Positions 18,881 through 36,154 of a DNA stretch of 64,000 nt are shown here, one piece after another. The stretch is from Gaiellaceae bacterium (GTDB lineage: Bacteria > Actinomycetota > Thermoleophilia > Gaiellales > Gaiellaceae). The notes under the pieces were generated by a model. The model worked only from the letters and a program-made list of their open reading frames with translations. It had not been told where the DNA came from and made no database searches. Each line of letters starts with the position of its first letter. Positions within the stretch are counted from its first letter, which is position 1. The stretch lies in assembly GCA_035456125.1 (NCBI GenBank), contig DATIDT010000029.1, positions 8,694 to 72,693 of the forward strand. The letters are read 5' to 3'. The position numbers and the translations under genes were made by a program.

Positions 18881-18930
18881 GGTGTGATGACACCATGAGG
18901 TCGGCTGCGGGAGGTGCAGGGACACGAGTC
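18881..18930. promoter_or_regulatory. Palindrome GGTGTGATGACACC (18881-18894) and a DosR-box-like core GGGAC-ACGA-GTCAC (18917-18930)
   Basis: Read directly. The second matches GGGAC-N4-GTCCC at 9 of 10 core positions. Confidence 0.25.
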
Positions 18931-18938
18931 ACGCCGCG

Positions 18939-20226: not shown

Positions 20227-20907
20227 TTACGCCTGCGCCGCAACCCGCCTGCGATGCAGCACTGCGAACGCCAGGATCACGAACCCGATCCCGGTCAGCA
20301 GCAGCGCCACTCCGACGACGATGCCGAACAGCCCCAGCCTGTCCGCCATGTAGGACGTGTTCAGCGCGGTCGTCAGCGCGGTCTCGGTCACCCAAAGGTC
20401 ACGGGCGCCGTTTGCGACGGGCTGCCCAGTGGCCTTGTCGATCAGCGCCCACTGCGCGTTGTCCGTGCCTCCGCCGACGGCCAGCTGCGCCTTCGGCGCG
20501 TTGGGCTTCGCGGCGAAGCGGCCCATCTGCGCGTACGTGTAGCCACCCGTCGCCTCGAGGGCGTGGATGCGCATGTACCCAGCGAATGCGCGTGCCCGGT
20601 CGCCGCTGTTAATCGCCTTGCCGGCGACGGAAACGGTCGGCAGGCTGATCGCGTTCACGTCGAGCCCCGCCTTCTGCGCCTCGGTCTTGATCGTCGACGG
20701 CGTCATGTCGGAGCTGCCGACGATCTTCTCCTGCTTGAGGCTGTCGGACACGGTCGAGCGTCCCTGGAAGCCCATGAAGATCGCGACGACGCCGAAGGTG
20801 ATGAGAACGGCGCCTGCCACGAAGCCGCCCCATTCCAGCACCTTGCGGAATGTGTCGTTCTTGACGGGAGCGTCCGTCTCTACCCGGTTTGCTGCGATGG
20901 TGCTCAT
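20227..20907 (-). CDS. Bitopic/two-TM membrane protein with a ~150-aa extracytoplasmic domain, unknown function
   Basis: AAGGAGGATTC RBS then MSTIAANRV.... TM near the N-terminus (GGFVAGAVLITFGVVAIFMGF) and the C-terminus (LGLFGIVVGVALLLTGIGFVILAF). Confidence 0.7.
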   Translation of the reverse strand: MSTIAANRVETDAPVKNDTFRKVLEWGGFVAGAVLITFGVVAIFMGFQGRSTVSDSLKQEKIVGSSDMTPSTIKTEAQKAGLDVNAISLPTVSVAGKAINSGDRARAFAGYMRIHALEATGGYTYAQMGRFAAKPNAPKAQLAVGGGTDNAQWALIDKATGQPVANGARDLWVTETALTTALNTSYMADRLGLFGIVVGVALLLTGIGFVILAFAVLHRRRVAAQA

Positions 20908-21092
20908 CTTGAATCCTCCTTGGGTGGTGGTTCCGGGATTGCTCCGCAGTGAAGCCGCCGGCACGCGCGCCGCCATCCGCGAGCAGCCGCCGATCTGCTG
21001 GGGCTGAGCCGCGGAGTCGGTGCGGCTTTTCCGCAACGCCGTGCCGGGCAGAGACCGATGGCGGGCGGCCCGGGCGCGAGGAAGCTGAACGC

Positions 21093-22694
21093 ATGGGCGT
21101 CGCAACGGAGACCGCAATCCGGCCGATCGCGGCCGTCGCCGGCGACCTCGGCCTGGACGACGAGCACGTCGAGCCGCACGGCCGCTACACAGCGAAGATC
21201 AATCTCGCGGCGCTCGGCGCCGCACCGCGCGACGGCAAGCTCGTCTGCGTCACCGCGGTCACCCCGACGAAGGCCGGCGAGGGCAAGACGACCACTGCCA
21301 TCTCCCTGGCCGACGCGCTCGGACTGGGCGGCGACAACCCCGTCCTGTGCCTCCGGGAGCCGTCCCTCGGCCCGGTGTTCGGGCTGAAGGGCGGTGGGAC
21401 GGGCGGCGGCCGCGCGCAGGTCTTCCCGCCGGAGCTCGTGAACCTCCACTTCACCGGCGACATTCACGCCATCGGCGCGGCCAACAACCTGCTGGCCGCG
21501 CTCGTCGAAGCGCATCTGCTGCACGGCAACGAGCTGCGCATCGATCCTCTGTCGATCAGCTGGCGGCGCTGCCTCGACATGGACGACCGCGCCCTGCGTC
21601 GCATCGTCGTCGGGCTCGGAGGCCGTGCGAACGGAGCGCCGCGCGAGACGGGCTTCGACATCACCGCCGCCTCCGAGGTGATGGCGATCGTCGCAGTGTC
21701 GCAAGACTACGACGACCTCCGTGCGCGGCTCGGCGCAATCACCGTCGCGCGCGACGCCGCAGGCGAGCGGGTGACCGCGGAGCAGCTGCGCGCCGCCGGT
21801 GCGATGGCGGCGCTTCTGGTCGACGCCCTCAAGCCGAATCTCATCCAGACGCTCGAGGGCGTGCCGGCACTCGTCCACTGCGGACCGTTCGCGAACATCG
21901 CCCACGGCAACAACTCGATCGTCGCCGACATGCTCGGGCTCGAGCTCGGCGACTACGTCGTCACCGAGAGCGGCTTCGGCGCGGAGATGGGCTTCGAAAA
22001 GTTCGTCGACATCGTTTGCGGCCTCGGAGACATGCGCCCGGCGGCGGTCGTCGTCGTCGCGACGACGCAGGCGCTCGAGCATCACGGTGCCGACGGCGCG
22101 AACCTGGAAGCGAACCTGCGCATCGTCCGCGAGGTCGGGATCGAGCCGGTCGTGGCGATCAACCGCTTCCCGACTGACACGCGAAGCAAGACGAACGCGC
22201 TCAGGAAGGTGGCCCTCGAGCTCGGCGCGTACGCGGCCGAGGTCAACGACGGCTACGAGCACGGCGGCGCGGGCGCGGCGGCGCTGGCCGAGGCGGTGAA
22301 GGCGGCCGCCGCGCGGCCCGCGGAGGTCCGCCCGCTCTACGCCGGCGGCGACCCGTTGCGGCGCAAGCTCGAGGCGGTCGCACGGAAGGCCTACGGTGCC
22401 GCCGACGTCGAGCTGGCCCCGGCGGCCGTGAAGCAGCTGAGACAGCTCGAGGCGGACGGCCTCGACCACCTGCCGGTGTGCATCGCGAAAACGCATCTGT
22501 CGCTCTCGCACGACCCGAACGCCCTCGGCGCGCCGCGTGGTTTCACACTCCCCGTCAGAGAGCTCAGGCCGTATACGGGCGCCGGCTGGATCGTCGCGCT
22601 GTGCGGCGACATGCAGACGATGCCGGGCCTGCCCTCGAAGGCCGCTGCCTTCGAGATCGACGTCGACGGTGAGACGATTCGCGGCTTGCGTTGA
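21093..22694 (+). CDS. fhs: Formate--tetrahydrofolate ligase
   Basis: GAGGAAG RBS. VTAVTPTKAGEGKTTT P-loop, ...HCGPFANIAHGNNS..., ...ICIAKT.. pattern. Confidence 0.9.
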   Translation: MGVATETAIRPIAAVAGDLGLDDEHVEPHGRYTAKINLAALGAAPRDGKLVCVTAVTPTKAGEGKTTTAISLADALGLGGDNPVLCLREPSLGPVFGLKGGGTGGGRAQVFPPELVNLHFTGDIHAIGAANNLLAALVEAHLLHGNELRIDPLSISWRRCLDMDDRALRRIVVGLGGRANGAPRETGFDITAASEVMAIVAVSQDYDDLRARLGAITVARDAAGERVTAEQLRAAGAMAALLVDALKPNLIQTLEGVPALVHCGPFANIAHGNNSIVADMLGLELGDYVVTESGFGAEMGFEKFVDIVCGLGDMRPAAVVVVATTQALEHHGADGANLEANLRIVREVGIEPVVAINRFPTDTRSKTNALRKVALELGAYAAEVNDGYEHGGAGAAALAEAVKAAAARPAEVRPLYAGGDPLRRKLEAVARKAYGAADVELAPAAVKQLRQLEADGLDHLPVCIAKTHLSLSHDPNALGAPRGFTLPVRELRPYTGAGWIVALCGDMQTMPGLPSKAAAFEIDVDGETIRGLR

Positions 22695-23857
22695 GCGCCG
22701 CCAGCGCAAGCGGTAACGTCGAGCTGCTGAGTGAGCGCCCGGACTCCGCGCTTGTCATCCCGCTCGACGGGCTGGACGAGCTTGTCACGGTTCTGCGAGA
22801 GCGCGGCTACCGCGTGATCGGGCCGAAGGCCCGCGACGGCGCGATCGTCTACGACGACATCGCCGGCGCGGCCGACCTCCCGGCCGGCTGGGGCGACGAG
22901 CAGGACGCCGGCTCGTACCGGCTCGTCCGCCGCGCCGACGACGCGCGCTTCGGGTACGCCGTCGGTCCGCATTCGTGGAAGCAGTTCCTCCAGCCGCCGC
23001 ACGTCCGCCTCTGGCAGGCGGAGCACGACAGCGCGCTCGAGCAGGAACCGGAGCCCGACCGGCCGCTGGCGTTCGTCGGCGTGCGCGGGTGCGACCGGCA
23101 CGCGATCGCGATCCAGGATCGCGTACTGCTCGGAGGGCGCTACGCCGACGACGACTACGCCGCGCGCCGCGACGGCGCGTTCGTCGTCGCCGTCGACTGC
23201 GCGGAGCCCGCCGGCACGTGCTTCTGCGTCTCCATGGACACCGGCCCCGGCGTCGAGGACGGTTTCGACCTCGCGCTGACGGAGCTGCTGGACGGCGAGC
23301 ACCGCTTCCTCGTCCGCGTCGGCAGCGAACGGGGCGCCGACGTGCTGTCGGAGGTGTCCTCCCGCGCTGCCGAGCCCGACGAGCTCTCCGCGCGCGCGGG
23401 GATCGTCGAGCAGGCAGCCCAGCGGATGGGGCGCGAGCTGGACACGACAGGGCTGCGCGAGCTGCTGCAGGACGCGCTGGAGCATCCGCGCTGGGACGAG
23501 GTCGCCGAGCGCTGCCTCACGTGCGGGAACTGCACGATGGTCTGCCCCACCTGCTTCTGCACGACGGTCGAGGACGTGACGGATCTCGGCGGCGAGCACG
23601 CGGAGCGCTGGCGTTCGTGGGACACGTGCTTCTCGCTCGACCACTCGTACATGCACGGCGGCAGCGTGCGCGCGACCGGTCGCTCGCGTTACCGGCAGTG
23701 GCTGACGCACAAGCTCGGCACCTGGTGGGACCAGTTCGGGACGAGCGGCTGCGTCGGCTGCGGCCGGTGCATCGCGTGGTGCCCGGTCGGCATCGACATC
23801 ACGGAGGAGGCGGCGGCGCTGCGGGCGTCGCCGGCAGGCGATGGCGCGCGGGCTTGA
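22691..23857 (+). CDS. hyhB: Hydrogenase beta subunit, AsrA/HydB-like 2x[4Fe-4S] protein
   Basis: TTG start overlapping the fhs stop (TTGA). [16 protein letters not shown] and [12 protein letters not shown] motifs. Confidence 0.8.
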
Positions 23858-24305
23858 CGCGGTCGTCCTCGACGCGCCGGTCTTCTCCGGTATCGGCGAC
23901 GAGAATGCGGCGCAGCTCGCGGGTTGTGCCCGCACGACCGGCTGGGCCGACGGCGAGACGCTCTTCCGCGAGGGCGATTCCGCCGACACGTTCTACGTCG
24001 TCAGGCGCGGCCGCGTCGCGCTCGAGCTGTTCGTCCCGAACCGCGGGCCGCTGACGATCGAGACGATCGAGCCGGGCGAGGTGGTCGGCTGGTCGTGGTT
24101 GTTCCCGCCGTACCGCTGGCACTTCGACGGCCGCGCCGTCGGCGGGGTGCGAGCGATCCAGGTCGACGGCGCCTGCCTTCGGGACAAGTGCGACGCCGAC
24201 CCGGTGCTCGGCTACGAGCTGATGCGGCGCTTCTCCCAGGTGATGCTCGAACGGCTCCAGGCGACGCGCCTGCGGCTCGCCGACGTCTACGCGGTTCCGC
24301 GATGA
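23841..24305 (+). CDS. Stand-alone cyclic-nucleotide-binding (cNMP) domain protein, no HTH
   Basis: 154 aa. ...[22 protein letters not shown]...GEVVGWSWL... beta-roll pattern. Overlaps hyhB by 17 nt and is ATGA-coupled to hyhG. Confidence 0.75.
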
Positions 24306-25117
24306 GCGTCATGACGCCGAGCACCTATCTGGTCAGCGGCCGGCGGCGCGAGACGGCGGACACGTTCACGCTCGAGCTCGAGCCGCGGAACGGCGGCATC
24401 CCCGCGCCGCAGCCGGGTCAGTTCACGATGCTGTACGCGTGGGGCGTCGGCGAGGTGCCGATCTCCGTGAGTGCGGTCGAGAACGACGGGAGGCTCGTCC
24501 AGACGATTCGCGACGTCGGGGCCGTCACGCACACGCTCTGCGCGCTCGAGCAGGGAACGACGCTCGGAGTGCGCGGGCCGCTCGGCCGCGGCTGGCCGGT
24601 CGAGGAGCTCGCAGGCGCGGACGTCGTGGTCGTCGCGGGCGGGCTCGGTCTCGCGCCGCTGCGGCCGGCGGTGCACGCGCTGATCACGAAGCGCGACCTG
24701 TTCGAGCGGCTCGTGCTGCTGTACGGAGCGCGCACGCCGGGCGACCTGCTCTTCCTCGATGAGCTGGAGCGCTGGGCGGAGGGCGGCTTCGACGTGCAGC
24801 TGACCGTCGACGCAGCCGATGCGGACTGGGACGGCCCCGTGGGCGTGGTCGGCAAGCTCGTGGCCCGCGGCGAGTTCGACCCGGCATCCGCCGCCGCGTT
24901 GATGTGCGGGCCGGAGGTGATGATGCGGTTCACCGCAGCGGCGCTCGCGGAGCGCGGGGTCGCTCCGGAGCGGACGTACGTCTCGCTCGAGCGGTCGATG
25001 AAATGTGGCGTCGGGCAGTGCGGCCATTGCCAGATCGGCCCGACGCTCGTGTGTGTCGACGGGCCCGTGTACTCGTGGGCAGAGATGGCTCGATGGCTGT
25101 CGGTGCGGGAGCTCTAG
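24302..25117 (+). CDS. hyhG: Hydrogenase gamma subunit, FAD/NAD(P)-binding with C-terminal [2Fe-2S] (AsrB/PyrK-like)
   Basis: GQFTMLY...PISVS (FAD), [12 protein letters not shown] (NAD(P)), [14 protein letters not shown] cluster motif. Confidence 0.85.
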
Positions 25118-25872
25118 TGGGCGCGAAGCCGACGCTCGCCGTCTGGAAGTTCACGTCGTGCGACGGCTGCCAGCTCAGCCTGCTCGACCTCGAGGACGAG
25201 CTGCTCGCGATCGCCGGGGAGCTCGAGATCGCCCAGTTTCTCGAAGCGTCGAGCGCGACGGTCGCAGGGCCGTACGACGTGTCGCTCGTCGAGGGCTCGA
25301 TCACGACGCCCCACGACCGCGAGCGGATCCGCGAGATCCGCGACGCGTCCGGGTTCCTGATCTCGATCGGCGCGTGCGCCACTTCCGGCGGGATCCAGGC
25401 GCTCCGCAACTTCGCCGACGTCGAAGGCTTTCTCAGCGCTGTGTATGCAACGCCCGAGTACGTCGCGACGCTCGACACGTCGACGCCGATCTCCGATCAC
25501 GTCGCCGTCGACCTCGAGCTCCAGGGTTGCCCGATCAACAAGCGCCAGCTGCTCGAGGTGATCACCGCCTTCCTGCGCGGGCGACGGCCCAACGTCCCGG
25601 CGTACTCGGTGTGCGTCGAGTGCAAGCGCCGCGGGACGCCGTGCGTGATGGTGGCGCGGGGCGTCGCGTGCCTCGGGCCCGTCACGAACGCCGGCTGCGG
25701 CGCGCTCTGCCCGGCGTATGCCCGCGGCTGCTACGGCTGCTTCGGCCCGAAGGAGCAACCCAATCTCGCCTCCCTGACGGCGTGGTGGGTCGACGAGCTC
25801 GCCGTCGAGCCGCCGGCGGTCGATCGTGCGCTCCAGACGTTCAACGTCGAGAAGTTCAGGCGCACGGCATGA
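25117..25872 (+). CDS. hyhS: NiFe hydrogenase small (delta) subunit, group 3 type
   Basis: [45 protein letters not shown] Cys motifs. GTG at 25117 overlaps the hyhG stop; an ATG at 25093 is an alternative. Confidence 0.8.
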
Positions 25873-27164
25873 CCACCACGCGCCGGACGATCCAGACGGA
25901 CTATCTCGCGCGGGTCGAGGGCGAGGGCGCGATGACCGTCCGCCTGGTCGACGGCCAGGTGGAGGACGTCGAGCTCCGCATCTTCGAGCCGCCGAGGTTC
26001 TTCGAGGCGATGCTCCGCGGACGCTCGTTCCGCGAGGCTCCGGACATCACCGCGCGCATCTGCGGGATCTGCCCCGTCGCGTACCAGACGAGCGCCGTCA
26101 ACGCGATGGAGGACGTCTGCGGCGTGACGGTGCCCGAGCCGATCCGGATGCTGCGGCGGCTCCTCTACTGCGGCGAGTGGATCGAGAGCCACGCGCTGCA
26201 CGTCTACATGCTCCACGCACCCGACTTCCTGGGCTACGACGGCGCGGTGCAGATGGCACAGGAACATCCGCGCGAGGTGGAGCGCGGCCTCGCGCTGAAG
26301 AAAACGGGCAACGAGCTGATGGCTCTGATCGGAGGACGCGAGATCCATCCGATCAACGTCCGCGTCGGGGGCTTCTACCGCGCGCCGACGCAAGCCGAGC
26401 TCCGCACGCTCGTCGATCCGCTCGAGCGCGCGCGAGCGGCGGCGCTCGAGACCGTGCGCTGGACCGCGTCGTTCGGGTTCCCCGAGCGTGAGGTGCCCTG
26501 CGAGCTGGTCGCGCTCTCGGACCCGCGGGCCTACGCGATCGAGAACGGCCGCATCGTCTCCGACCGCGGCCTCGGAATCGGGCCCGGCGAGTACGACGGG
26601 CAGTTCGTCGAGGAGCACGTCGAGCGCTCGAACGCGCTCCATTCGCGGCGCACCGACGGGACGACGTACCTCTGCGGCCCGCTCGCGCGCTACACGCTCG
26701 GCTCCGACCGGCTGTCGCCGGCGGCGCGCGAGGCGGCACGCGCTGTCGGCCTCGGCGACGACTGCCGTGACGCCTTCCGCAGCATCGTCGTCCGCAGCGT
26801 CGAGCTCGTCTACGCGTGCGACGAAGCGCTGAGCCTGATCGCCGCCTACGAGGAGCCGGAGCAGCCCGCAGTCGACGTGGAGCCGGTGGCCGGCACCGGC
26901 TACGGCGTCAGCGAGGCACCGCGCGGGCTCCTGTACCACCGGTACCGCCTCGACGCCGACGGGACGATCCGCGATGCAAAGATCGTGCCGCCGACGTCGC
27001 AGAACCAGCTCGCGATCGAGGACGACCTGCGCGGCGTCGTCTCGAGCTACGCGGAGCTGCCGGACGACGACCTGCGGGACCTCTGCGAGCAGACGATCCG
27101 GAACTACGACCCGTGCATCTCGTGCGCGACGCACTTCCTCACGCTCGAGGTGGAGCGGCGGTGA
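25869..27164 (+). CDS. hyhL: NiFe hydrogenase large (alpha) subunit
   Basis: ATGA coupling. N-terminal [10 protein letters not shown] and C-terminal DPCISCATH Ni-Fe ligand motifs. Confidence 0.9.
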
Positions 27165-27625
27165 GCATCGTCGTGATCGGCGTAGGCAACCGCCTGCGCG
27201 GCGACGATGCGGCCGGCCCGGCGGTCGCCGACCGCGTCCGCGCACAGGCGCCCGGCAACGTCGACGTGCGCATCTGCGAGCAGGAGCCGTCGCGGCTGCT
27301 CGATGCGCTCGCGGGCGCCGACGTCGCCTTCGTCGTCGACGCCGTCTCGACCGGTGCCGCCCCGGGCACGCTCCACCGGTTCGACGCGAGCACCGCGCCG
27401 GTCCCGAGTCGCGAGCTGCGCTCGTCCACGCATGCGCTCGGCGTCGGGGAGTCCCTCGAGCTGGCACGGGCGCTCGGGCGCCTGCCCCGGCGAACCGTCG
27501 TCTTCGGCATCGAAGGCCGTGCCTTCCTCGCCGGCGGCGAGCTGAGCCGGGCAGTAGAAGAGAGCGTGGAGCGCGCCGCCGCGTCTGTCCTCGAGGAGGT
27601 GGCGCAGTGCACGAACGAGCCGTGA
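27161..27625 (+). CDS. Hydrogenase maturation endopeptidase (HycI/HyaD family)
   Basis: GTGA coupling. [19 protein letters not shown]..., ...VDAV...GTLHRF..., STHALG motif. Confidence 0.8.
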
Positions 27626-27876
27626 TGCGGCAGCTGGTGCGACGGGTGGTCGAAGTTGCGGGCGAGGAGAACGCCGACGCGGTGACAGCGATCCGGGTGC
27701 GCCTCGGAGCGCTGTCGCACTTCACGCCGGAGCATTTTCGCGAGCACTTCCTCGACGCAGCGCGCGGCACACCGGCGGAAGGCGCGGCCGTCGATGCCGT
27801 CGTCTCCACGGACCGAACTGCCGCGCACGCCGACGGCGTGGTGCTCGAGAACGTCGAACTGGAGGTGTCGCCCTGA
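27607..27876 (+). CDS. hypA: HypA-like nickel metallochaperone lacking the Zn(Cys)4 domain
   Basis: GTG start gives (M)HE N-terminus ([11 protein letters not shown]...). 89 aa with no CxxC pairs anywhere. Overlaps the protease gene by 19 nt. Confidence 0.6.
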   Translation: MHERAVMRQLVRRVVEVAGEENADAVTAIRVRLGALSHFTPEHFREHFLDAARGTPAEGAAVDAVVSTDRTAAHADGVVLENVELEVSP

Positions 27877-28091
27877 TGTGCATCGGATCGATCCAGGTGC
27901 TGGAGGACGCGTGGGAGGAGGGCGGCGCGCGCGTCGGTCGACTCGCAAACGGCACCCTCGTCACGCTCGCGTTCGTGCCTGCTGCAGAGCCCGGCGTGCA
28001 CGTCATCGTGCATCTGGGCATTCCCGTCGAGGTGCTCTCGGCCGAAGAGGCCGAGACCGCGCCCGACCTCCATGCAGGAGCGCAGCTGTGA
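27876..28091 (+). CDS. hypC: HypC/HupF hydrogenase assembly chaperone
   Basis: MCIGSIQVLE... N-terminal Cys2 motif, ...GVHVIVHLGIPVEVLSAEEA.... Confidence 0.8.
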   Translation: MCIGSIQVLEDAWEEGGARVGRLANGTLVTLAFVPAAEPGVHVIVHLGIPVEVLSAEEAETAPDLHAGAQL

Positions 28092-28984
28092 GCCGCCGCT
28101 CGACGGGAATCGCCATCGCGTTCGTGACCGCGTGCATCAGCGGCGTATCGATCTGGGTCAACTCCCACGCGGTCGCACGATTCGACGACGCCACCGTGTA
28201 TACGACGGCGAAGAACGCCGTCGCCGGCCTGCTCCTGCTCGCGCTCGCGCTTCCACTCCTCCGTCGCGCCGGTAACGGTGCTGCAGCCGTCCCCTCACGC
28301 CTCAGGCCGGCGCTGCTTGCCGTCGCCGTCGTCGGCGGCAGCGTGCCGTTCGTCCTCTTCTTCGAGGGGCTCGCCCGTGCCGAGGCGACGCAGGCGGCAT
28401 TCATCCAGAAGACACTCGTCGTCTGGGTGGCGTTGCTGGCGATCCCGCTGCGGCGCGAGCGGATCGGCATCGCCCACGTCGCCGCGATCGTGTTCGTGAT
28501 CGCCGGACAGGCCGTGCTGGCGGGCAGCGCGGGCACGGTCGTCTTCGGGACGGGCGAGGCCATGATCCTCGCGGCGACACTGCTCTGGGCAGTCGAGGTC
28601 ATGCTGGCGAAGCGACTGCTCGACGACGTCGCCGTACGCGTGTTGGCCGTGGCGCGGATGGTCCTGGGAACGGTCCTGCTGCTCGCGTGGCTCGTGGTGT
28701 CGGGGCGCGCGGACGACTTCGTCCGGCTCCCGGCGTCGCAATGGAGCTGGGCGCTGCTGACGGGCGTCCTGCTCGGCGCTTATGTCGCGACGTGGTACGC
28801 GGCGCTGGCGCGGGCTCAGTGCGTGGACGTGACCGCGGTGCTCGTCTTCGGGGCGGTCGTCACAGCGTTTCTCGCCCAGGCCGCCGACGGCGTGGCCTTC
28901 GACGCGCTCGGCGTCGTGCTCGTCACCGTCGGCGTCGCGCTCGCAGCCGTCGCCGGGAGCCGTCCGAGCTTGCGAACGGCATGA
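28088..28984 (+). CDS. EamA/DMT-family transporter (10 TM)
   Basis: GTGA coupling to hypC. Two EamA-like halves with about 10 hydrophobic helices. Confidence 0.8.
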   Translation: MSRRSTGIAIAFVTACISGVSIWVNSHAVARFDDATVYTTAKNAVAGLLLLALALPLLRRAGNGAAAVPSRLRPALLAVAVVGGSVPFVLFFEGLARAEATQAAFIQKTLVVWVALLAIPLRRERIGIAHVAAIVFVIAGQAVLAGSAGTVVFGTGEAMILAATLLWAVEVMLAKRLLDDVAVRVLAVARMVLGTVLLLAWLVVSGRADDFVRLPASQWSWALLTGVLLGAYVATWYAALARAQCVDVTAVLVFGAVVTAFLAQAADGVAFDALGVVLVTVGVALAAVAGSRPSLRTA

Positions 28985-29733
28985 CGCCCGGGCCGCTGCT
29001 CTTCGCGCGCTACGCGTACCCGCCGAACGCGCTCGGCCTTTGCGGCGCAGAGGAGTCCCGCACCCTGCTCGAGTACGGAACCGCCGGCGCTTCCGACGGC
29101 GGCCTCGCCGAGTTGGCGCAGGCCTTCGAGGGCGCCTGGCCGTACCTCACGCTCATCGCCGGCGCGAACGGCATCCACGACCCGCTCGACGCGCGCGTCG
29201 TCGAGGCGTACTGGGTCGGCAACGACCTGCTCGACCGCGTCTCCGGGCAGACGCTCGCGCGCCACATCGAGGACCGCTTCAGAGGGCGCGTAGGGCGCAC
29301 CTGGGAGCGCATCGTCGAGGCGGTGGCGGCAGGGGCGGTGCCGCACCACACGTTCCACGTCTTCGCCGTGTACCCGTGGCTCGGGCTGCTCCGGACCGGC
29401 GAAGCCGCGCAACCGCTGCTCGTGCTCGACCGTTGCCGCATCACGCCGGCCCTCGTCCAGAGCGTGGAGGGCGAAACCGTGAAGGTTCTGGCCCCGGCGC
29501 TCGACTGGGACGGCAGCCGGCTCTCACTCGGCTGGTGGAAGCAGCGGACCGCACGCTTCAGCGAAGACGGGCTCGGGTTCGTCACGCCGGCGCCCGGCGA
29601 CTGGGTATCGCTCCACTGGGATTTCGTCTGCGACCGCCTGACGCTCGCGCAGGCCACGAGCCTCTACCGGGCGACCGAGCGGGCGCTCGTGGCCGTGCAC
29701 GGCTCTGCCGGGACGAAGCTCGTGCTCGGTTAG
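28981..29733 (+). CDS. DUF6390-like protein with a C-terminal HypC-like domain
   Basis: ATGA coupling. N-terminus FARYAYPPNALGLCGAEE. C-terminus ...DRCRITPALVQSVEGETVKV...GDWVSLHWDFVCDRLTLAQA resembles HypC (MCxGxPxxV...GxWVLVHxGFA). Confidence 0.65.
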   Translation: MTPGPLLFARYAYPPNALGLCGAEESRTLLEYGTAGASDGGLAELAQAFEGAWPYLTLIAGANGIHDPLDARVVEAYWVGNDLLDRVSGQTLARHIEDRFRGRVGRTWERIVEAVAAGAVPHHTFHVFAVYPWLGLLRTGEAAQPLLVLDRCRITPALVQSVEGETVKVLAPALDWDGSRLSLGWWKQRTARFSEDGLGFVTPAPGDWVSLHWDFVCDRLTLAQATSLYRATERALVAVHGSAGTKLVLG

Positions 29734-29802: not shown

Positions 29803-30222
29803 GTGCTCGTGAGCCTGACCGCGTCTGCCCATTCGATTGCCGGAACGTCGAGGCAGAGCGTGCTGATCGACGGCAGGCACCACCTGCTCACGGACGAGCC
29901 GGAGCATCTGGGCGGCACCGACCTGGGCCCGTCGCCGCACGAGCTACTGCCGGCCGCACTCGCGGCGTGCATCTCGCTCACGCTCGTGACGTACGCACGG
30001 ACGAAGAAATGGGACATCGGCGAGGTCACGGTCGACGTCGTGTACGACAGCAAGGCGGTGCCCCGCCGGTTCGACGTGGCGATCGACATCGAGCGGGACG
30101 TCGACGAAGCGCAGCTGGCGCGACTGGAGAAGGTGGCGGCGGCCTGCCCGTTGCGGCGCTCGCTCGAGACCGGCTTCGAGTTCCACGAGGTCGTCCGTCG
30201 CCGCGAGAGCATTGCGGCCTGA
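29803..30222 (+). CDS. OsmC/Ohr-family protein
   Basis: GTG start. ...GGTDLGPSPHELLPAALAACISLT...AACPLRRSL, two conserved Cys. Confidence 0.75.
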   Translation: MLVSLTASAHSIAGTSRQSVLIDGRHHLLTDEPEHLGGTDLGPSPHELLPAALAACISLTLVTYARTKKWDIGEVTVDVVYDSKAVPRRFDVAIDIERDVDEAQLARLEKVAAACPLRRSLETGFEFHEVVRRRESIAA

Positions 30223-30381
30223 GGCGGACATGCCGATCGACACCCGCGACCTGCGCGAGGCGAAGAGCTGCACTCGAAGCAGATCCGGATCCGCAGAAAC
30301 CCGCAGATCGTTCGCCGCCTCCCCCGATGTGGAACCGGAGCCGATGCGCGACGCTTCGTCTACCGAAACGGAGGTCCAGCG

Positions 30382-30891
30382 ATGAGCATCACCGAACGAC
30401 CACCGGCGAGCGCGCAGGCAGATGCGCTGCGCTCGGAGCACGAGCGCCTCGGCGAGCACGCAGAGGAGATTCGCGTCGCCGCGCTCGAGCTGCCCGTCCT
30501 GGCTCCGGAGGAGCGCCGCGTACTGGTCGATCGTATCGTCTCCTTCCTGAGCGGGCCTTTCGCGGCCTACGCCGAGAGCGAGGTGAGAGCCCTTTACCCG
30601 TATCTCGACCGCGTGCTGGACGATCCGCACGCCAGCGCGGGAATGCGCTACGACCTCGAGGCCGTCCGGCAGCTCACCGACCGCTTGCGTGAAGCCGACG
30701 TACGGAACACGCCGGGACTGCAGGAGCTCCTCTACGGGGTGCACGCGATCATCACGCTGCATCTCCGGAAGGAGGACGACCTGTACCTGCCGCGGCTGGC
30801 GCAGGAGCGGCCGGCACAGCTCGAGCACGTGCTGAGGGCGATGCGCGAGGTTCGGTTCGAGCACGACCATCCCGCGCGTGGCGACCTCTGA
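30382..30891 (+). CDS. Hemerythrin (HHE cation-binding)-like protein
   Basis: GGAGG RBS. ...LRSEHERLGEHAEEI... and ...HLRKEDDLYLP... His/Glu helices. Confidence 0.55.
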   Translation: MSITERPPASAQADALRSEHERLGEHAEEIRVAALELPVLAPEERRVLVDRIVSFLSGPFAAYAESEVRALYPYLDRVLDDPHASAGMRYDLEAVRQLTDRLREADVRNTPGLQELLYGVHAIITLHLRKEDDLYLPRLAQERPAQLEHVLRAMREVRFEHDHPARGDL

Positions 30892-30905
30892 AGGGAGGAG
30901 GAATC

Positions 30906-31070
30906 ATGCGCGACACACCTACGCACCCTCGTCGGCGAGTCGAGCACCTCATCGGGCGCGCGGATCGCCTCACGAGCTGGGCGCTCGCCCAGAGCTACCT
31001 GACAACACAGAAAGTCCCACCGAAACGACGGACACCGCCGTTCGTCGACGCTCGCGCACCGAGACGATGA
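30906..31070 (+). CDS. Unlisted 54-aa basic small ORF
   Basis: My translation reads MRDTPTHPRRRVEHLIGRADRLTSWALAQSYLTTQKVPPKRRTPPFVDARAPRR. GGGAGGAGG lies 5 nt before the ATG, and the stop overlaps the next gene start (ATGA). GC3 is only about 70%. Confidence 0.35.
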   Translation: MRDTPTHPRRRVEHLIGRADRLTSWALAQSYLTTQKVPPKRRTPPFVDARAPRR

Positions 31071-31681
31071 GAGCGCCGCCGGCTGCACCCGACCGGCGCC
31101 TGGTCGAGCTGCCGCCTGACGCACCCGTCTGGGAGCGCGTCTTCACCGTTGCGCCACTCGTGCTGATCGGGACGAAGGAGGGCGACGGGTACGACGTCGC
31201 CCCGAAGCATCTCGCGTCCCCATTCGGCTGGGAGAACTCGTTCGGCTTCGTCTGCACGCCGCGGCACGCGACGTACCGCAACGTGGTCGAGCACCGGGCA
31301 TTCACGGTGAGCTTCCCGCGCGCCGACCGCATCCTTCATGCGACGCTCGCCGCCGGCGGGAGACTGGACGACGGGTCGAAGCCGACGCTCGACGCGGTGC
31401 CGACGTTTCCGGCTCACCACATCGACGGTGTCTTCGTCGAAGGCTGTTACCTGTACCTCGAGTGCGAGCTCGACCGAGTCATCGGCGGGTTCGGCGACAA
31501 CGGTCTCATCGTCGGACGGATCGTCGCGAGCAGCGCATGCCAGGAGTTCGTGCGCCGCATCGATCAGGACGATGCCGACGTGCTCGAACGGCTGAATCCG
31601 ATCGTGTACGTCTCGCCCGGCCGATTCGGGATCGTGCGGGAGACGTATTCGTTCCCGTTCCCGATCGGCTTCAGCCGCTGA
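31067..31681 (+). CDS. Flavin reductase-like (FMN-binding split-barrel) protein
   Basis: Internal start MRAPPAAP.... ...VAPLVLIGTKEG.GYDVAPKH... pattern. Confidence 0.6.
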   Translation: MRAPPAAPDRRLVELPPDAPVWERVFTVAPLVLIGTKEGDGYDVAPKHLASPFGWENSFGFVCTPRHATYRNVVEHRAFTVSFPRADRILHATLAAGGRLDDGSKPTLDAVPTFPAHHIDGVFVEGCYLYLECELDRVIGGFGDNGLIVGRIVASSACQEFVRRIDQDDADVLERLNPIVYVSPGRFGIVRETYSFPFPIGFSR

Positions 31682-31683
31682 GC

Positions 31684-32892
31684 ATGCCCCGAGCGCGTGC
31701 GGCAGAGCTGCTCGCCTGGCTCGAGGAGCACGAGCTCGACTTCGTCCGCCTCGTCGAGCGGCTTGCGCGCACGGAGTCGCCCTCGCTCGACGCGTCTGCG
31801 CAGGCGGCCGTCTTCGCGGCGCTCGCGACCGAGCTCGAGAGTGTCGGCTACCGCGTCCGCCGCGTCGATCGGCCGCGCGCCGGCCCGCATCTGTACGCCC
31901 GACCCGCAAGCCGGTGCCGGCACGCCCCGTTCCAGCTCGTCGTCGGTCACATGGACACCGTCTGGCCGGTCGGAACGCTCCGGCAGATGCCCGTCTACCG
32001 GGAAGGCGACATCCTCTTCGGCCCCGGCACGTGCGACATGAAGGCCGGCCTGGCGCAGCTCGTCTTTGCCGTGAAGGCACTGGACGCGTGCCGCCTCGTC
32101 CCGACCGTCACGCCGATCGTCGTCATCAACGCCGACGAGGAGATCGGCAGCCCGACCTCGGAGCGGATGATCGAGCGCTTCGCGCGGCTCGCCGAGCGGG
32201 CGTTCGTGCTGGAGGCGGGCGACGGGCCGGACGGCCGCCTGAAGATCGCCCGCAAAGGCGTCGGCCGCTATGAGCTCAAGGTCCGCGGCCGCGCGTCGCA
32301 TGCCGGCACGAGCTTCGACGAGGGCGTCAGCGCGGTCCTCGAGCTCTCGCATCAGGTGCAGCGCCTGTTCGCGCTGAACGACCCGAGGCACGGTGTGACG
32401 GTCAACGTCGGGACTGTCGACGGCGGGATGCGTCCGAACGTCGTCGCGCCGGAAGCGAGCGCCGAGATCGGCGTTCGAGTGCCGACGGCTCGCGCCGCGC
32501 GCGACCTCGACCGCTCGCTGAGGAGCCTGCGGCCCGTCCTGCGCGGATCGATGCTCGAGCTGAGCGGCGGCATCGGGCGACCTCCGATGGAGGCAACGCC
32601 GCGAAATCGTGCGCTGTTCGCGGTCGCGCAGCGGCTCGGCCGCGACGTCGGGCTCTCGCTGGTCGACGCCGGGCTCGTCGGCGGCGGCTCCGATGCGAAC
32701 ACGACCAGCCGCTATACCGCGACGCTGGACGGCCTTGGCCCGATCGGCGACGGAGACCATGCGACGCACGAGCACATTCGGGTCCGCGCCACGACGCAGC
32801 GGACGGCGCTGCTCGCCCTGCTCCTGCTGGAGCCCGCCTTGCGCCCGGGGCGGCAGGCGCCGCCCCGGGCGGCAAGCGCTACGCCTTCGTGA
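31684..32892 (+). CDS. M20-family metallopeptidase (carboxypeptidase G2-like)
   Basis: VVGHMDTVWP, GTCDMKAG, NADEEIGS, ...GGGSDAN... metal-ligand motifs. Confidence 0.85.
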   Translation: MPRARAAELLAWLEEHELDFVRLVERLARTESPSLDASAQAAVFAALATELESVGYRVRRVDRPRAGPHLYARPASRCRHAPFQLVVGHMDTVWPVGTLRQMPVYREGDILFGPGTCDMKAGLAQLVFAVKALDACRLVPTVTPIVVINADEEIGSPTSERMIERFARLAERAFVLEAGDGPDGRLKIARKGVGRYELKVRGRASHAGTSFDEGVSAVLELSHQVQRLFALNDPRHGVTVNVGTVDGGMRPNVVAPEASAEIGVRVPTARAARDLDRSLRSLRPVLRGSMLELSGGIGRPPMEATPRNRALFAVAQRLGRDVGLSLVDAGLVGGGSDANTTSRYTATLDGLGPIGDGDHATHEHIRVRATTQRTALLALLLLEPALRPGRQAPPRAASATPS

Positions 32893-33301
32893 TCTCGACG
32901 GTCTTCGGCTCCAGGATCCTGGCCTTCGGCGCGTGCACCTCGAGCACGCCCTTCTCGAACGTGGCGCGCAGGTGCTCCGTGTCCGCCTCGGCCGGAAGCA
33001 CGAAGCGGCGCTCGAACTCGCGCGCGAGCCGCTCGTGCAGACGGAAGGCCTTCTCGCCCTGATCCTTCGCGTCGGTGCGCCGACCCTTGATGGTGAGCTG
33101 GTGATCCGACACTTCGATGCCGAGCTCCTCGCGCTCGAAGCCGGGCACCTCGAGCTCGACGACGTACTCGTCGCCGGTCTCGTAGATGTCGGTTGCCGGG
33201 AGCACGGCAGGCGGGACGGTCAGACCGTCCAGCAGTCGAAGCATGCGGCGCTCCATCGTGTCGAAGTCACGAAGAGGCGACCACAGCTGCAGCGTGGTCA
33301 T
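32879..33301 (-). CDS. Hsp20/alpha-crystallin small heat-shock protein
   Basis: AAGGGAGGTG RBS then MTTLQLWSPLRDFD...DIYETGDEYVVELEVPGF...GVLEVHAPK. Confidence 0.9.
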   Translation of the reverse strand: MTTLQLWSPLRDFDTMERRMLRLLDGLTVPPAVLPATDIYETGDEYVVELEVPGFEREELGIEVSDHQLTIKGRRTDAKDQGEKAFRLHERLAREFERRFVLPAEADTEHLRATFEKGVLEVHAPKARILEPKTVEITKA

Positions 33302-33342
33302 GTGTTCACCTCCCTTCGCGGACATGTTCATCCTCGCGCGCG

Positions 33343-33354
33343 CACACGCGTGTG
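33343..33354. promoter_or_regulatory. Perfect 12-bp palindrome CACACGCGTGTG in the hsp20 / CBS-BON divergent promoter
   Basis: Read directly from the sequence. Confidence 0.3.
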
Positions 33355-33501
33355 GCATCGGTTCGGCCACAGATCAGCTGTGTGGAGAAGTACGGAGGCA
33401 AAAAGCGAAGGCGCGCCGATGCCGATTCACGTCTCCGCCGGCACGATGAGGACGAAGCCGCCGGGCCCGGCTTCAGCATGTGCGAAAGGAGGGTGAACGT
33501 G

Positions 33502-34155
33502 ATGAGAGTCGAGGACGTGATGACCCGCGAGGTCGAGGTCGTCGAGAGGCGCACCGGCCTGAAGGACGTGGCGCATCTGCTGTCGATGCACGAGATCAGC
33601 GGCGTCCCCGTGGTCGAGCACGGCGTGCCCGTCGGCGTCGTCTCCGAGTCGGACCTCGTCGCCAAAGAGCAGGAGAGCGAGGCGGAGACGGTGCGGCAAC
33701 GACGGCGCTTGCTGCGGCAGCCCCCGCGCGCGGACGCCGTCGTCGCCGCCGACGTCATGACCGCGCCGCCGGTGACCGTCACGCCGCAGACCTCGGCGGT
33801 CGGAGCTGCGTGGCTGATGACGGAGCACGACATCGACCGCCTGCTCGTGGTGCAGAACGACCGCCTGGTCGGAATCGTCACGCGCAGCGATCTGGTGCGG
33901 GCATTCGGGCGCTCGGACGAGCAGATTCGAGCCGAGATCGTCGGCGACGTCCTGCCTGCGCTCGGCGTTTCGGCGAACAACGTGTCCGTCGCCGTCGACG
34001 ATGGAGTCGTGCTGCTCGCAGGAGAGGTCGAGGACGAGCTCGAGGCGCGCTGCCTGCCGCACGCGGTCCGCTCCGTGCTCGGCGTCGTCGAGGTGCGCTC
34101 CGAGCTGGCGGCGCGGCATCGGAAGCGGCCGCCGGTCGGCGTCTATACGTACTGA
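33502..34155 (+). CDS. CBS-pair + BON domain protein
   Basis: AAAGGAGGG RBS; a GTG at 33499 is also possible. MRVEDVMTREV..., second CBS ...VMTAPPVTV..., C-terminal VAVDDGVVLLAGEVED...VVEVRSEL BON-like. Confidence 0.8.
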   Translation: MRVEDVMTREVEVVERRTGLKDVAHLLSMHEISGVPVVEHGVPVGVVSESDLVAKEQESEAETVRQRRRLLRQPPRADAVVAADVMTAPPVTVTPQTSAVGAAWLMTEHDIDRLLVVQNDRLVGIVTRSDLVRAFGRSDEQIRAEIVGDVLPALGVSANNVSVAVDDGVVLLAGEVEDELEARCLPHAVRSVLGVVEVRSELAARHRKRPPVGVYTY

Positions 34156-34174
34156 TCCCGGCGCCGGCGACCGT

Positions 34175-34408
34175 TCAGTCGGCCGGCGGGCGCAGCACGA
34201 ACTCGCCGTCGCGGAGTGCCGTCGGGACGAGCGGCCTGCGCTGCTCGGCCAGCCATGCGGTCACCGTGGCGCCGACCACGCACCTGGTGTCGAGGATCTC
34301 GACTGCCGTTCCGCGGCGCTGAGCGTGCAGCCCGAGGCCTTCGACGAAACCCTCGAAGTCGACGGCGTCCGTCTCACGCGCAAGCTCGATGGTTGTGCTT
34401 GACGACAT
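34175..34408 (-). CDS. Hypothetical 77-aa protein
   Basis: GAGGAGG RBS, good GC3, no recognised motif. Confidence 0.5.
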   Translation of the reverse strand: MSSSTTIELARETDAVDFEGFVEGLGLHAQRRGTAVEILDTRCVVGATVTAWLAEQRRPLVPTALRDGEFVLRPPAD

Positions 34409-34534
34409 GCATGCCTCCTCTCGAGCGAACCCTGGCAGCGACAGGCGGGGTCGACATCGGGAGAAGCGCGGAACGTCGCTGCGGGTTTCGCGCGTCTCGC
34501 CCCCACCCCGTCCGATTCTGCGAACATCATCTCG

Positions 34535-36154
34535 ATGAACATGCTGCGGGAGACCGACCGTCTCCGAGCGCTGGTCGAGACCGGGATCGCAATCAACTCA
34601 GAGCTTTCGCTGGACGGCGTGCTCGAGCGCATCGTCGAGGCGGCGGCACGCGTGACCGGCGCCCGCTACGCGGCGCTCGGCGTGATCGACCCGACCGGAA
34701 GCGGGCTCGAGCGCTTCGTCACCTACGGCCTGACGCCCGACGTCGAGTCCCAGATCGGGCACCCCCCGCACGGCAGGGGCATCCTCGGCGTCCTCATCGA
34801 GGACGCGCGGCCGTTGCGGCTGCACGACCTGACGCAGGATCCGCGCTCGGTCGGGTTTCCGCCGGGCCATCCCGCGATGCACTCGTTCCTCGGCGTGCCG
34901 ATCAAGCTGCGCGGCGTCGCCTTCGGGAACCTGTACATGACGGAGAAGGAGGGTGGCGACTTCACCGACGAGGACGCTGACCTCGTCTCGCTCCTCGCCG
35001 CGCAAGCAGCCGTGGCCGTTGAGAATGCGCGGCTCTACGAGGCTGCGACGGCATGGTCGAAGCAGCTCGAGTCGCTGAACGAGGTCGGCGCGGCGCTCGT
35101 CGGCGAGCTGGAGCTCGAGCCCTTGCTCGATCTCGTCGCCACGCGTCTGCGCGAGCTGATCGCGGCGCGCGTGGTCGCGATTGCGCTGCCCGCCGCAGGC
35201 GGGCTCCGGATGGCCGCCGCAGTCGGCGACGACGGCGACGTGATGACGGCGATCGGCAACCTTGCGGAATCGTCGAAGACGCAGCGCGTCCTGGAACGCG
35301 GCCAGAGCGAGCGAGTCGACTCGCTGTTCGAGGATCCGGAGGTGAACCAGGTCATTGCGCGGCGTCTCGGAGCGACCACGGGCCTGTACGTGCCGCTCCG
35401 CTCGCGCGAGCGCGCGATCGGCGTGCTCATCGCGCACGACAAGATCGGGCGGGACCAGCGCTTCACCAGCGGCGACCTGCGGCTCGCAGAGCAGTTCGCG
35501 CTCCGCGCGTCGATCGCGGTCGACCTCTCCCAGCGCGTCGCGCGCGACTCGCTGCGCCGGGTCGTCGCCGGCCAGGAGGTGGAGCGCCGCCGTCTCGCAC
35601 GCGAGCTGCACGACGAGACCGGTCAGGCGCTCACGTCGATCCTGCTCGGCCTGCGCGCACTCGAGGAGGGCGGCGACTCGGGTGTCGACGCGCTCCGTGA
35701 GCTCGTCGTGTCGACGTTGCAGGACGTGCGACGCCTGGCCGTGCAGCTCAGGCCGAAGGCGCTCGACGACTTCGGCCTGGTGCCGGCACTCGAGCGCCTC
35801 GCACAGACGTTCTCCGAGTCGAGCGGCATCACGACCGATCTCGAGGCACGACTCGGCGAGGAGCGGCTCCCGGCCGACGTCGAGACGACCGTCTACCGCA
35901 TCGTCCAGGAAGCGCTGACGAACGTCGTCAAGCACGCAGAGGCGAAGAACGTCAGCATCTTGCTCGTGCGACGCGGCTCGGTCGTCACCGCCGTCGTCGA
36001 GGACGACGGGCTCGGGTTCGACGCCCATGCGGTTCGCGACGACAATCTCGGACTCGAGGGGATGCGCGAGCGCGTCGAGCTGCACGACGGCCGTATGACG
36101 GTCGAGACGTCACCCGGTTCGGGCACGACGCTTCGCGTCGAGGTGCCGCTGTGA
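34535..36154 (+). CDS. GAF-GAF sensor histidine kinase (HisKA_3 + HATPase), DosS/DevS-like
   Basis: GAF-A: ...ARYAALGV...IGHPPHGRGILGV...DPRSVGFPPGHPAMHSFLGVPI..FGNLYMTE. H-box RELHDETGQ. G-boxes DDGLGF and GSGTTL. Confidence 0.85.
   Translation: MNMLRETDRLRALVETGIAINSELSLDGVLERIVEAAARVTGARYAALGVIDPTGSGLERFVTYGLTPDVESQIGHPPHGRGILGVLIEDARPLRLHDLTQDPRSVGFPPGHPAMHSFLGVPIKLRGVAFGNLYMTEKEGGDFTDEDADLVSLLAAQAAVAVENARLYEAATAWSKQLESLNEVGAALVGELELEPLLDLVATRLRELIAARVVAIALPAAGGLRMAAAVGDDGDVMTAIGNLAESSKTQRVLERGQSERVDSLFEDPEVNQVIARRLGATTGLYVPLRSRERAIGVLIAHDKIGRDQRFTSGDLRLAEQFALRASIAVDLSQRVARDSLRRVVAGQEVERRRLARELHDETGQALTSILLGLRALEEGGDSGVDALRELVVSTLQDVRRLAVQLRPKALDDFGLVPALERLAQTFSESSGITTDLEARLGEERLPADVETTVYRIVQEALTNVVKHAEAKNVSILLVRRGSVVTAVVEDDGLGFDAHAVRDDNLGLEGMRERVELHDGRMTVETSPGSGTTLRVEVPL

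Follow-up and report, generated by a model that had tools for sequence, protein, structure and literature searches.

The gene for formate-tetrahydrofolate (THF) ligase, fhs, is the first cistron of an operon that otherwise encodes a [NiFe]-hydrogenase of the Hyh type in a 64,000-nucleotide (nt) stretch of the metagenome-assembled genome (MAG) of an uncultured soil bacterium of the Gaiellaceae (assembly GCA_035456125.1, contig DATIDT010000029.1, positions 8,694 to 72,693 of the forward strand; hereafter the window). Judged by its gene content, this is a Hyh-type group 3b hydrogenase operon in a DosR-like island, with fhs as head gene as its new element. The layout is real but lineage-restricted, and it points to a link between one-carbon (C1) and hydrogen metabolism. 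Eleven genes run on the + strand from 21093 to 29733, from fhs to a gene for a DUF6390 protein, and all ten junctions between them are stop/start overlaps with zero intergenic bases (Table 1). They appear to form a genuine single operon, presumably co-transcribed. The first-pass annotation of this DNA had listed the same ten overlaps, and every one was recovered at its position and with its type. It had also described an 11-gene hydrogenase unit; the chain does hold 11 genes when fhs is counted, but the hydrogenase unit proper comprises ten.

Table 1 Genes, overlaps and neighbouring features of the fhs-hyh region, in window positions (aa, amino acids)
Feature	Position	Strand	Description	Basis
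Divergent protein gene	20227..20910	-	227 aa; apparent hydrophobic segment at each end	No Pfam family
Intergenic region	20911..21092	.	182 nt	Alignments
fhs	21093..22694	+	Formate-THF ligase, 533 aa, first cistron	PF01268, NF010030
fhs/hyhB overlap	22691	+	TTGA
hyhB	22691..23857	+	AsrA/ShyB-like Fe-S beta subunit, 388 aa	Profile matches
hyhB/cNMP-binding gene overlap	23841	+	17 nt
cNMP-binding gene	23841..24305	+	cNMP-binding-domain-only protein, 154 aa	PF00027
cNMP-binding gene/hyhG overlap	24302	+	ATGA
hyhG	24302..25117	+	AsrB/ShyC-like FAD/NAD(P) and [2Fe-2S] gamma subunit, 271 aa	Profile matches
hyhG/hyhS overlap	25117	+	TAGTG, 1 nt shared
hyhS	25117..25872	+	Small (delta) subunit, 251 aa	PF01058; ShyD 175 bits
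hyhS/hyhL overlap	25869	+	ATGA
hyhL	25869..27164	+	Group 3b [NiFe] large (alpha) subunit, 431 aa	Profile matches, alignment, tree
hyhL/endopeptidase overlap	27161	+	GTGA
Endopeptidase gene	27161..27625	+	Hydrogenase maturation endopeptidase, HycI-type, 154 aa	TIGR00072 123 bits
Endopeptidase/HypA overlap	27607	+	19 nt
Short HypA gene	27607..27876	+	89 aa	PF01155, positions 1-64 only
HypA/HypC overlap	27876	+	1 nt
HypC gene	27876..28091	+	71 aa	PF01455; TIGR00074 35 bits, under 48-bit cut-off
HypC/EamA overlap	28088	+	GTGA
EamA gene	28088..28984	+	EamA/DMT transporter, 298 aa	PF00892
EamA/DUF6390 overlap	28981	+	ATGA
DUF6390 gene	28981..29733	+	250 aa	PF19927 298 bits
OsmC, hemerythrin, flavin reductase and M20 peptidase genes	29803..32892	+		Profile matches
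Hsp20 (-), CBS-CBS-BON (+) and two-component genes	32879..36795	mixed	Dormancy-type neighbours
Kinase resembling DosS	34403/34535-36154		GAF-GAF-HisKA_3 kinase	GAF x2, HisKA_3, HATPase domains
Regulator resembling DosR	36151-36795		NarL-type regulator	Response_reg, GerE domains

Assignment of the hydrogenase to group 3b is supported by its motifs, its subunit set and its best matches among solved structures. The four-subunit set (alpha, delta, AsrA-like beta and AsrB-like gamma) is present, and the large subunit HyhL has all four Ni-Fe cysteines, in the motifs RICGIC (C65, C68) and DPCISCATH (C416, C419), as well as the C-terminal tail; both motifs are invariant in the HyhL alignment. Among solved structures, HyhL matches the alpha subunits of Pyrococcus furiosus sulfhydrogenase I and Thermococcus kodakarensis cytosolic hydrogenase best (220-222 bits, full length), ahead of MvhA (179 bits), HoxH (139 bits) and FrhA (130 bits). 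The NCBIfam models rank in the same way, with ShyA at 275 and HydA at 232 bits above frhA (147 bits) and VhuA (138 bits). These results agree with the group 3b layout read from the subunits in the first-pass annotation. The P. furiosus sulfhydrogenases I/II and the T. kodakarensis enzyme (HydBGDA/ShyBCDA; 9nez, 9e15, 5yxy) share the same four subunit types. For all four Gaiellaceae subunits the best NCBIfam models are indeed ShyA/B/C/D and HydA/B/D/G, but the scores fall far under the equivalog cut-offs (for ShyA, 275 bits against 700), and the Gaiellaceae Hyh is therefore a distant bacterial relative. Unlike the archaeal enzymes, the Gaiellaceae operon also holds maturation genes and an extra gene for a protein with a cyclic nucleotide monophosphate (cNMP)-binding domain.

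This cNMP-binding protein, which the text of the first-pass annotation does not name, lies between the beta and gamma subunits. In a set of 80 HyhL loci that spans many phyla, almost every locus has the core hyhB-cNMP-hyhG-hyhS-hyhL-protease, and almost all keep the order beta-(cNMP)-gamma-delta-alpha. Wherever the region is present in these 80 loci, the slot between hyhB and hyhG is nearly always filled by a homologue, in Actinomycetota, Acidobacteriota, Pseudomonadota, Bacteroidota, Planctomycetota and others. From its distribution, the protein seems to be a conserved fifth part of this class of bacterial group 3b enzymes.

The head gene encodes a full-length enzyme: Fhs scores 701 bits against PF01268, covering positions 6-555 of 556, and 671 bits against the NF010030 equivalog, above its cut-off of 652. 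The source MAG has a size of 1.94 Mb in 89 contigs and is 57% complete (window G+C content ~70%), which speaks for a chimeric assembly at the fhs/hyhB junction or for an fhs that is a decaying remnant. Gene order and TTGA junction are identical, however, in two further species of the genus at ~91% protein identity (G050 and G068), the latter 98% complete in 7 contigs, and position 22691 is crossed by unitigs with 0-4 mismatches in runs of four independent soil metagenome studies. Because the TTGA junction is shared by three species and bridged by contigs from four studies, an assembly artefact at this site is excluded. With Fhs also full length and over its equivalog cut-off, we consider a chimera or remnant practically out of the question. 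The junction-spanning sequence is present in many soil metagenomes.

Comparison of loci within the genus indicates that the fusion is young and restricted to one sub-clade. Among 53 species genomes, 9 carry hyhL and 26 carry fhs, each as a single copy (the tallies include the unpublished genomes G044 and G045, on which no conclusion rests). In clade A (G000, G050, G068), fhs is fused upstream of a 10-gene hyh unit. Clade B (G011, G049, G062, G064) has the same oxidoreductase gene, membrane-protein gene and fhs, followed by a convergent 6-gene hyh unit that abuts the end of fhs; immediately upstream of hyhB stands hsp20 in G049 and G062, followed farther out by dosS-dosR in G062. Two more species, G003 and G005, have a 6-gene hyh unit at the locus and fhs elsewhere. 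In a maximum-likelihood tree of 89 HyhL sequences, the 10-gene units (clade A plus those of seven other Gaiellaceae MAGs) form one clade (support 100/100), and the 6-gene units of the genus form a separate one (100/96). A simple inversion of the sister clade's operon was rejected on this tree: as the 10-gene and 6-gene HyhL lineages are separate, clade A does not hold an inverted neighbour operon, and a different lineage occupies the site. The 10-gene lineage would thus have come to sit directly behind fhs, where sister species hold the convergent 6-gene lineage.

In its fused position, hyhB has no start signals of its own. The only canonical start of clade A hyhB is the TTG inside the fhs stop, which gives an N-terminus ~12 codons longer than that of native homologues. 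In both lineages, native hyhB genes start 7-8 codons ahead of a V-I-x-P segment that is conserved, with an AGGAGG-type site 4-8 nt before an ATG or TTG; a GATGTAGGGT promoter-like motif ~40 nt upstream is found in five of them. Neither an own ribosome-binding site nor the GATGTAGGGT motif was found upstream of clade A hyhB; both would have been lost during the fusion. Synthesis of Hyh therefore appears to depend on transcription, and probably translation, of fhs. This agrees with the placement of fhs as first cistron in the first-pass annotation, although the 'stoichiometric' tie claimed there goes too far, as overlapping cistrons indicate co-expression and not a fixed ratio or a complex.

Other signals considered at the junction were set aside. 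The only window match to the GATGTAGGGT promoter at 2 mismatches lies inside hyhG on the minus strand, with none at 1 mismatch. An alternative hyhB start was rejected, as the ~50 codons that follow 22691 contain no in-frame ATG, GTG or TTG; codon 13 is a conserved CTG that corresponds to the native start position and has no ribosome-binding site before it. A hairpin around the TTGA was no better than shuffled sequence and, by eye, is not kept in G050 or G068. Scans for sigma-70 promoters and intrinsic terminators returned nothing at the junction, though such scans are weak for DNA of 70% G+C.

Beyond the genus, the pairing of fhs with hyh is restricted to the family but recurrent, in several arrangements. 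In the 80 HyhL loci, fhs is never found upstream of hyhB; it lies within 10 kb of the unit in two, both from Gaiellaceae, and in 0 of the ~66 loci of other groups. Of 201 Gaiellaceae genomes in an even sample, 39 carry HyhL and 129 carry fhs (the fhs tally includes the unpublished G109, G122, G190, G193 and G196, all without HyhL and outside the comparison). In 8 of the 39 HyhL-bearing genomes, from 7 genera, fhs lies at most 20 kb from hyhL. It is fused upstream of hyh in G000 and G068. It follows DUF6390 by 1.4 kb in G197 (as in locus L040), with a divergent CBS-BON gene between and Hsp20 beyond, and follows a decayed DUF6390 by 0.3 kb in G216. In G240, G142, G224 and G265 it is found 9, 10, 14 and 17 kb from hyh, respectively. 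The chance of such proximity is ~1.3% per genome, which gives a binomial P (at least 7 in 38) of ~6e-7, a figure inflated by relatedness. Recurrence in several arrangements favours a real functional or regulatory link over accident, and the fusion would reflect a tendency, seen across the family, for fhs and hyh to be neighbours. Thus, the adjacency is not unique to this genome. A literature search recovered no description of fhs with a group 3b hydrogenase or of fhs with DosR, in line with the first-pass annotation, and the fhs-group 3b pairing appears to be undescribed.

A quick Fhs tree resolved two lineages in the genus. All fused and abutting copies, together with that of G008, belong to one (the H lineage, with its ties to hyh and to dormancy islands), which is sister to the DUF6390-flanking copies of G197 and L040; the other (the C lineage) comprises 16 copies. 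In most of the genus's other species, C-lineage fhs stands directly after GCV_T-like and DAO (sarcosine-/dimethylglycine-oxidase-like) genes with a TAGATG junction (L024:4250-7004, - strand), or beside a GntR-FCD regulator and a DAO-FAO_M-GCV_T dehydrogenase gene (L028:4323-7201, + strand). These neighbours suggest a methylated-amine C1-oxidation context, in which Fhs would be expected to release formate and recycle THF.

An arrangement this variable could also arise with no specific coupling, if fhs and hyh were both members of a rearrangement-prone hypoxia/dormancy island, a cassette replacement put hyhB flush against fhs, and the result has persisted since co-expression is harmless or mildly convenient. 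The convergent, absent or distant fhs of sister species fits such a history, as do the two hyh lineages at the same locus in one genus and the 0 of ~66 loci outside the family; moreover, the fhs of G197 and L040 is flanked by CBS-BON and Hsp20 and is not attached to hyh. However, proximity in 7 genera is far over chance, the closest links are carried by one distinct Fhs lineage, and the fusion junction is precise and kept in three species, so that we regard mere co-residence as a tentative and somewhat unlikely explanation.

We prefer, with a probability of roughly 0.45, the reading that the operon is a low-oxygen survival module like the Hyh of Mycobacterium smegmatis, in which Fhs would yield ATP and formate while Hyh would dispose of NAD(P)H. 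Under low oxygen, Hyh would re-oxidise NAD(P)H and give H2. The co-expressed Fhs would run its reversible reaction toward formate, THF and ATP, so that substrate-level ATP would be gained from folate-bound C1 units (10-formyl-THF), and Hyh would consume the NADPH formed in the methylene-THF dehydrogenase step. We infer co-transcription, hypoxic induction, the direction of Fhs and the regulation alike. The Hyh of M. smegmatis, of group 3b and induced by DosR, converts NAD(P)H to H2 in hypoxia (10.1101/2023.09.11.557286; 10.64898/2026.10.24.761498), and the fhs-containing Wood-Ljungdahl pathway runs in both directions in syntrophic acetate oxidisers (PMC3584212).

The likeness to M. smegmatis Hyh (Hyd3) extends to the surroundings: both are actinobacterial group 3b enzymes, and a DosS/DosR-like pair, Hsp20 (HspX-like) and dormancy-type genes lie in the same island. 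The DosR-type gene set of the window comprises the GAF-GAF kinase, the NarL regulator, Hsp20, CBS-BON and hemerythrin. The proposed role, disposal of NAD(P)H as H2 at oxygen loss, would be shared as well. The Gaiellaceae unit differs in being headed by fhs, in its cNMP-binding gene between beta and gamma, in that HypB, HypD, HypE and HypF were not found in relatives with this unit, and in having no mycobacterial DosR box upstream.

Several observations weigh against the hypoxia module. In four sister species fhs runs convergent to hyh, in two more it is located elsewhere, and an fhs-hyh link, if any, therefore does not require a single transcript. The neighbourhood is absent in 31 of the 39 hyh-bearing Gaiellaceae and in all loci from other groups. 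An internal promoter may lie within the 3' end of fhs. Only one fhs was found in each genome, and routine C1 metabolism must therefore rely on it too. In or beside the operon, none of fdh, folD, glyA and gcv was recognised; glyA and gcv were likewise not recognised among the annotated genes of the window, and in G068 folD is on another contig. With up to 2 mismatches allowed, the DosR box GGGACN4GTCCC shows no enrichment in the window and does not occur in 20911-21092, and the mycobacterial box was accordingly rejected as a regulator of fhs; this consensus is mycobacterial, and the Gaiellaceae motif may differ. Given the four convergent and two unlinked sisters and the lack of the pairing in the loci sampled outside Gaiellaceae, the first-pass proposal that H2 or NADPH is coupled to formate is not supported as a conserved design.

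Group 3b enzymes are among the most widespread fermentative hydrogenases of aerobic soil bacteria and are thought to help obligate aerobes outlast oxygen loss. What feeds them, and which ATP source accompanies them, is known for essentially one model organism. The recurrent tie between a distinct Fhs lineage and hyh in Gaiellaceae, which are common soil actinobacteria, suggests a part for folate-bound C1 units in this survival metabolism. If the hypoxia module is real, its end products would include formate, and Fhs would be a source of ATP.

Group 3b enzymes can run either way, and the operon could also work in the opposite direction, with Hyh oxidising H2 to supply NADPH and Fhs together with FolD assimilating formate to serine and glycine in an H2-driven manner. 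Besides reversibility, this idea can call on a candidate selenocysteine formate dehydrogenase in G050 and G068. We consider it unlikely: the island context and the M. smegmatis precedent favour H2 evolution in hypoxia, none of the C1 genes named above was found in or beside the operon, and the formate dehydrogenase candidate is ~175 kb distant. The candidate itself (G050:C83:7249-10122; G068:C6:208605-211475) is a molybdopterin oxidoreductase with a match to formate dehydrogenase alpha, its N-terminal part interrupted by one in-frame TGA. Genes for formate metabolism and for a hydrogenase also go together in formate hydrogenlyase (group 4a with FdhF) and in hydrogen-dependent CO2 reductase, but there a formate dehydrogenase is joined to the hydrogenase directly, whereas the Gaiellaceae operon has an ATP-dependent folate ligase, a soluble NAD(P)-type group 3b enzyme and no formate dehydrogenase.

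The distal genes of the operon suggest an unusual route of hydrogenase maturation. According to a current review, all [NiFe]-hydrogenases require HypABCDEF. HypX makes CO from N10-formyl-THF, and the anaerobic source of the CO ligand is an open question (PMC12134894, PMC6802093). HypB, HypD, HypE and HypF were not found in the Gaiellaceae operon. Neither was HypD found in any of the 22 genomes with intact DUF6390, including the 98%-complete G068. In genomes of this DUF6390 type, HypF was not found in the 9 tested, HypE above cut-off not in the 4 tested, and HypB not in the 3 tested, with G068 again among them; in the same searches, positive controls and HypD-type genomes gave clear matches. 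In each of five genomes tested (G003, G050, G062, G068 and G069), Hyh is the sole [NiFe]-hydrogenase.

In HyhL-bearing Gaiellaceae genomes, intact DUF6390 (accompanied by EamA and usually hypC) and HypD exclude each other. Of the 39 sampled, 24 have HypD only, 13 have intact DUF6390 only, one has both and one has neither (the HypD tally for the family includes the unpublished G190, without HyhL). The genome with both is G216, in which hyhL and DUF6390 are broken, and the genome with neither is G224. The two states occur side by side within genera g36 and g73. Loci outside the family sample follow the same pattern: L038-L044, L082 and L083 have DUF6390 and no HypD, and L045, L046, L048, L049 and L072 have HypD and no DUF6390. 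In clade B, hypF-hypD-hypE-hypB is encoded ~50 kb from hyh in G062. The unit of G216 is a decayed one (L119; G216:C10:293000-308000), with hyhL, hyhG and DUF6390 in fragments that have in-frame stops; the fhs 0.3 kb beyond it matches residues 1-362 only, and HypD is encoded elsewhere in this genome.

The DUF6390 protein consists of a helical N-terminal domain and a HypC-like C-terminal domain, and its gene travels with that for EamA. Invariant residues in the alignment are C21, H122, H123, H126, C152, H212 and C217. In a structure model of moderate quality (mean predicted local distance difference test score, pLDDT, of 72), the C-terminal domain is predicted to resemble HypC 2z1c most closely among PDB folds, with a target-normalised template modelling (TM) score of 0.67. 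A literature search found no paper mentioning DUF6390. Its neighbours in a protein atlas include HypC/DUF6390-like clusters in DPANN archaea and a HypC fused to a radical-SAM (biotin-synthase-like) domain in Omnitrophota; these neighbours are a lead to other non-canonical maturation routes.

The short HypA has the N-terminal MHE nickel motif. Its match ends at profile position 64-66 out of 112-116, and both this coverage and its length indicate that the zinc domain is absent. Such short HypA proteins (~86-89 aa) also follow the protease in group 3b loci of many phyla (L046-L117), including those of HypD-bearing genomes, and are therefore not specific to the Hyp-less type.

Fhs might then contribute to maturation, by making N10-formyl-THF as precursor of the CO (or other diatomic) ligand for maturation independent of HypB/D/E/F. 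Here a hypC-EamA-DUF6390 route would draw a diatomic ligand, at least CO, from the N10-formyl-THF of the dedicated hyh-linked Fhs lineage, which would explain why fhs is fused to, or flanks, the unit in several Gaiellaceae genera. The chemistry of HypX and the open anaerobic CO source leave room for such a role, and the genomes with intact DUF6390 lack detectable HypD and, in the tested subsets, HypE, HypF and HypB; in addition, DUF6390 is followed by fhs after 0.3-1.4 kb in G216, G197 and L040, and clade A carries fhs fused on the upstream side. Yet clade B fhs abuts hyh too, though hypF-hypD-hypE-hypB is present (tested in G062), and fhs is far away in 9 of the 13 sampled genomes with intact DUF6390. 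The unit contains no HypX-like formyl-transferase or decarbonylase, and the cofactor needs CO in trace amounts only. We regard the proposal as improbable. In the aerobic HypX route of Cupriavidus necator, a folate C1 enzyme is likewise encoded in a [NiFe]-hydrogenase/maturation cluster and N10-formyl-THF is the shared metabolite; Fhs differs in being a ligase that makes formyl-THF and not a formyl-transferase/decarbonylase, the unit has no HypX-like gene, and the link is hypothetical. The interest of this class of units is that it appears to do without the supposedly universal HypB/D/E/F, and the fhs link would give a concrete handle on the CO ligand's origin.

Upstream of the operon, the divergent 227-aa gene always adjoins a pyridine-nucleotide-disulphide oxidoreductase gene (18939-20129), and the pair marks the conserved locus in G003, G005 and clades A and B. 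The alignment of the fhs leader has strong conservation with compensatory pairs, but only its last ~50 nt, with GAGGAAG before the ATG, are specific to fhs. The remainder is a non-coding element of ~140 nt (20911-21050 in - sense, strongly conserved over ~20911-21045) upstream of the 227-aa gene, kept in nine genomes whose 227-aa proteins are only 66-90% identical to that of the window. An invariant TTGCGGRAAASCCGCA hairpin and GCGGATGGCG, GGCTTGACT and CCCGGAACCACCAC blocks lie within it, and no Rfam match was obtained at the gathering threshold or at E<=1. A riboswitch for fhs was rejected: the element is also present in G003 and G005, which have no fhs there, and it therefore belongs to the divergent gene, for which it may serve as a leader RNA or as a region dense in regulatory signals. 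The GGCTTGACT block is not recurrent.

Downstream, the genes at 29803-32892 may extend the transcription unit; no terminator-like site was found in the gaps of this interval, where folds were no better than shuffled sequence. In G050 and G068, ~1.5 kb separate the OsmC and hemerythrin genes (L016:14320-15836; L017:14561-16079), compared with a gap of 160 nt in the window. The island also holds universal-stress-type genes, and upstream of the operon are genes for a pyruvate/2-oxoacid:ferredoxin oxidoreductase, a GltD-like protein, a GH65 enzyme and an ATP-binding cassette (ABC) exporter. Just upstream of the oxidoreductase gene that starts at 18939, the sequence GGGACACGAGTCAC (18919-18932, + strand) is one mismatch from the DosR core.

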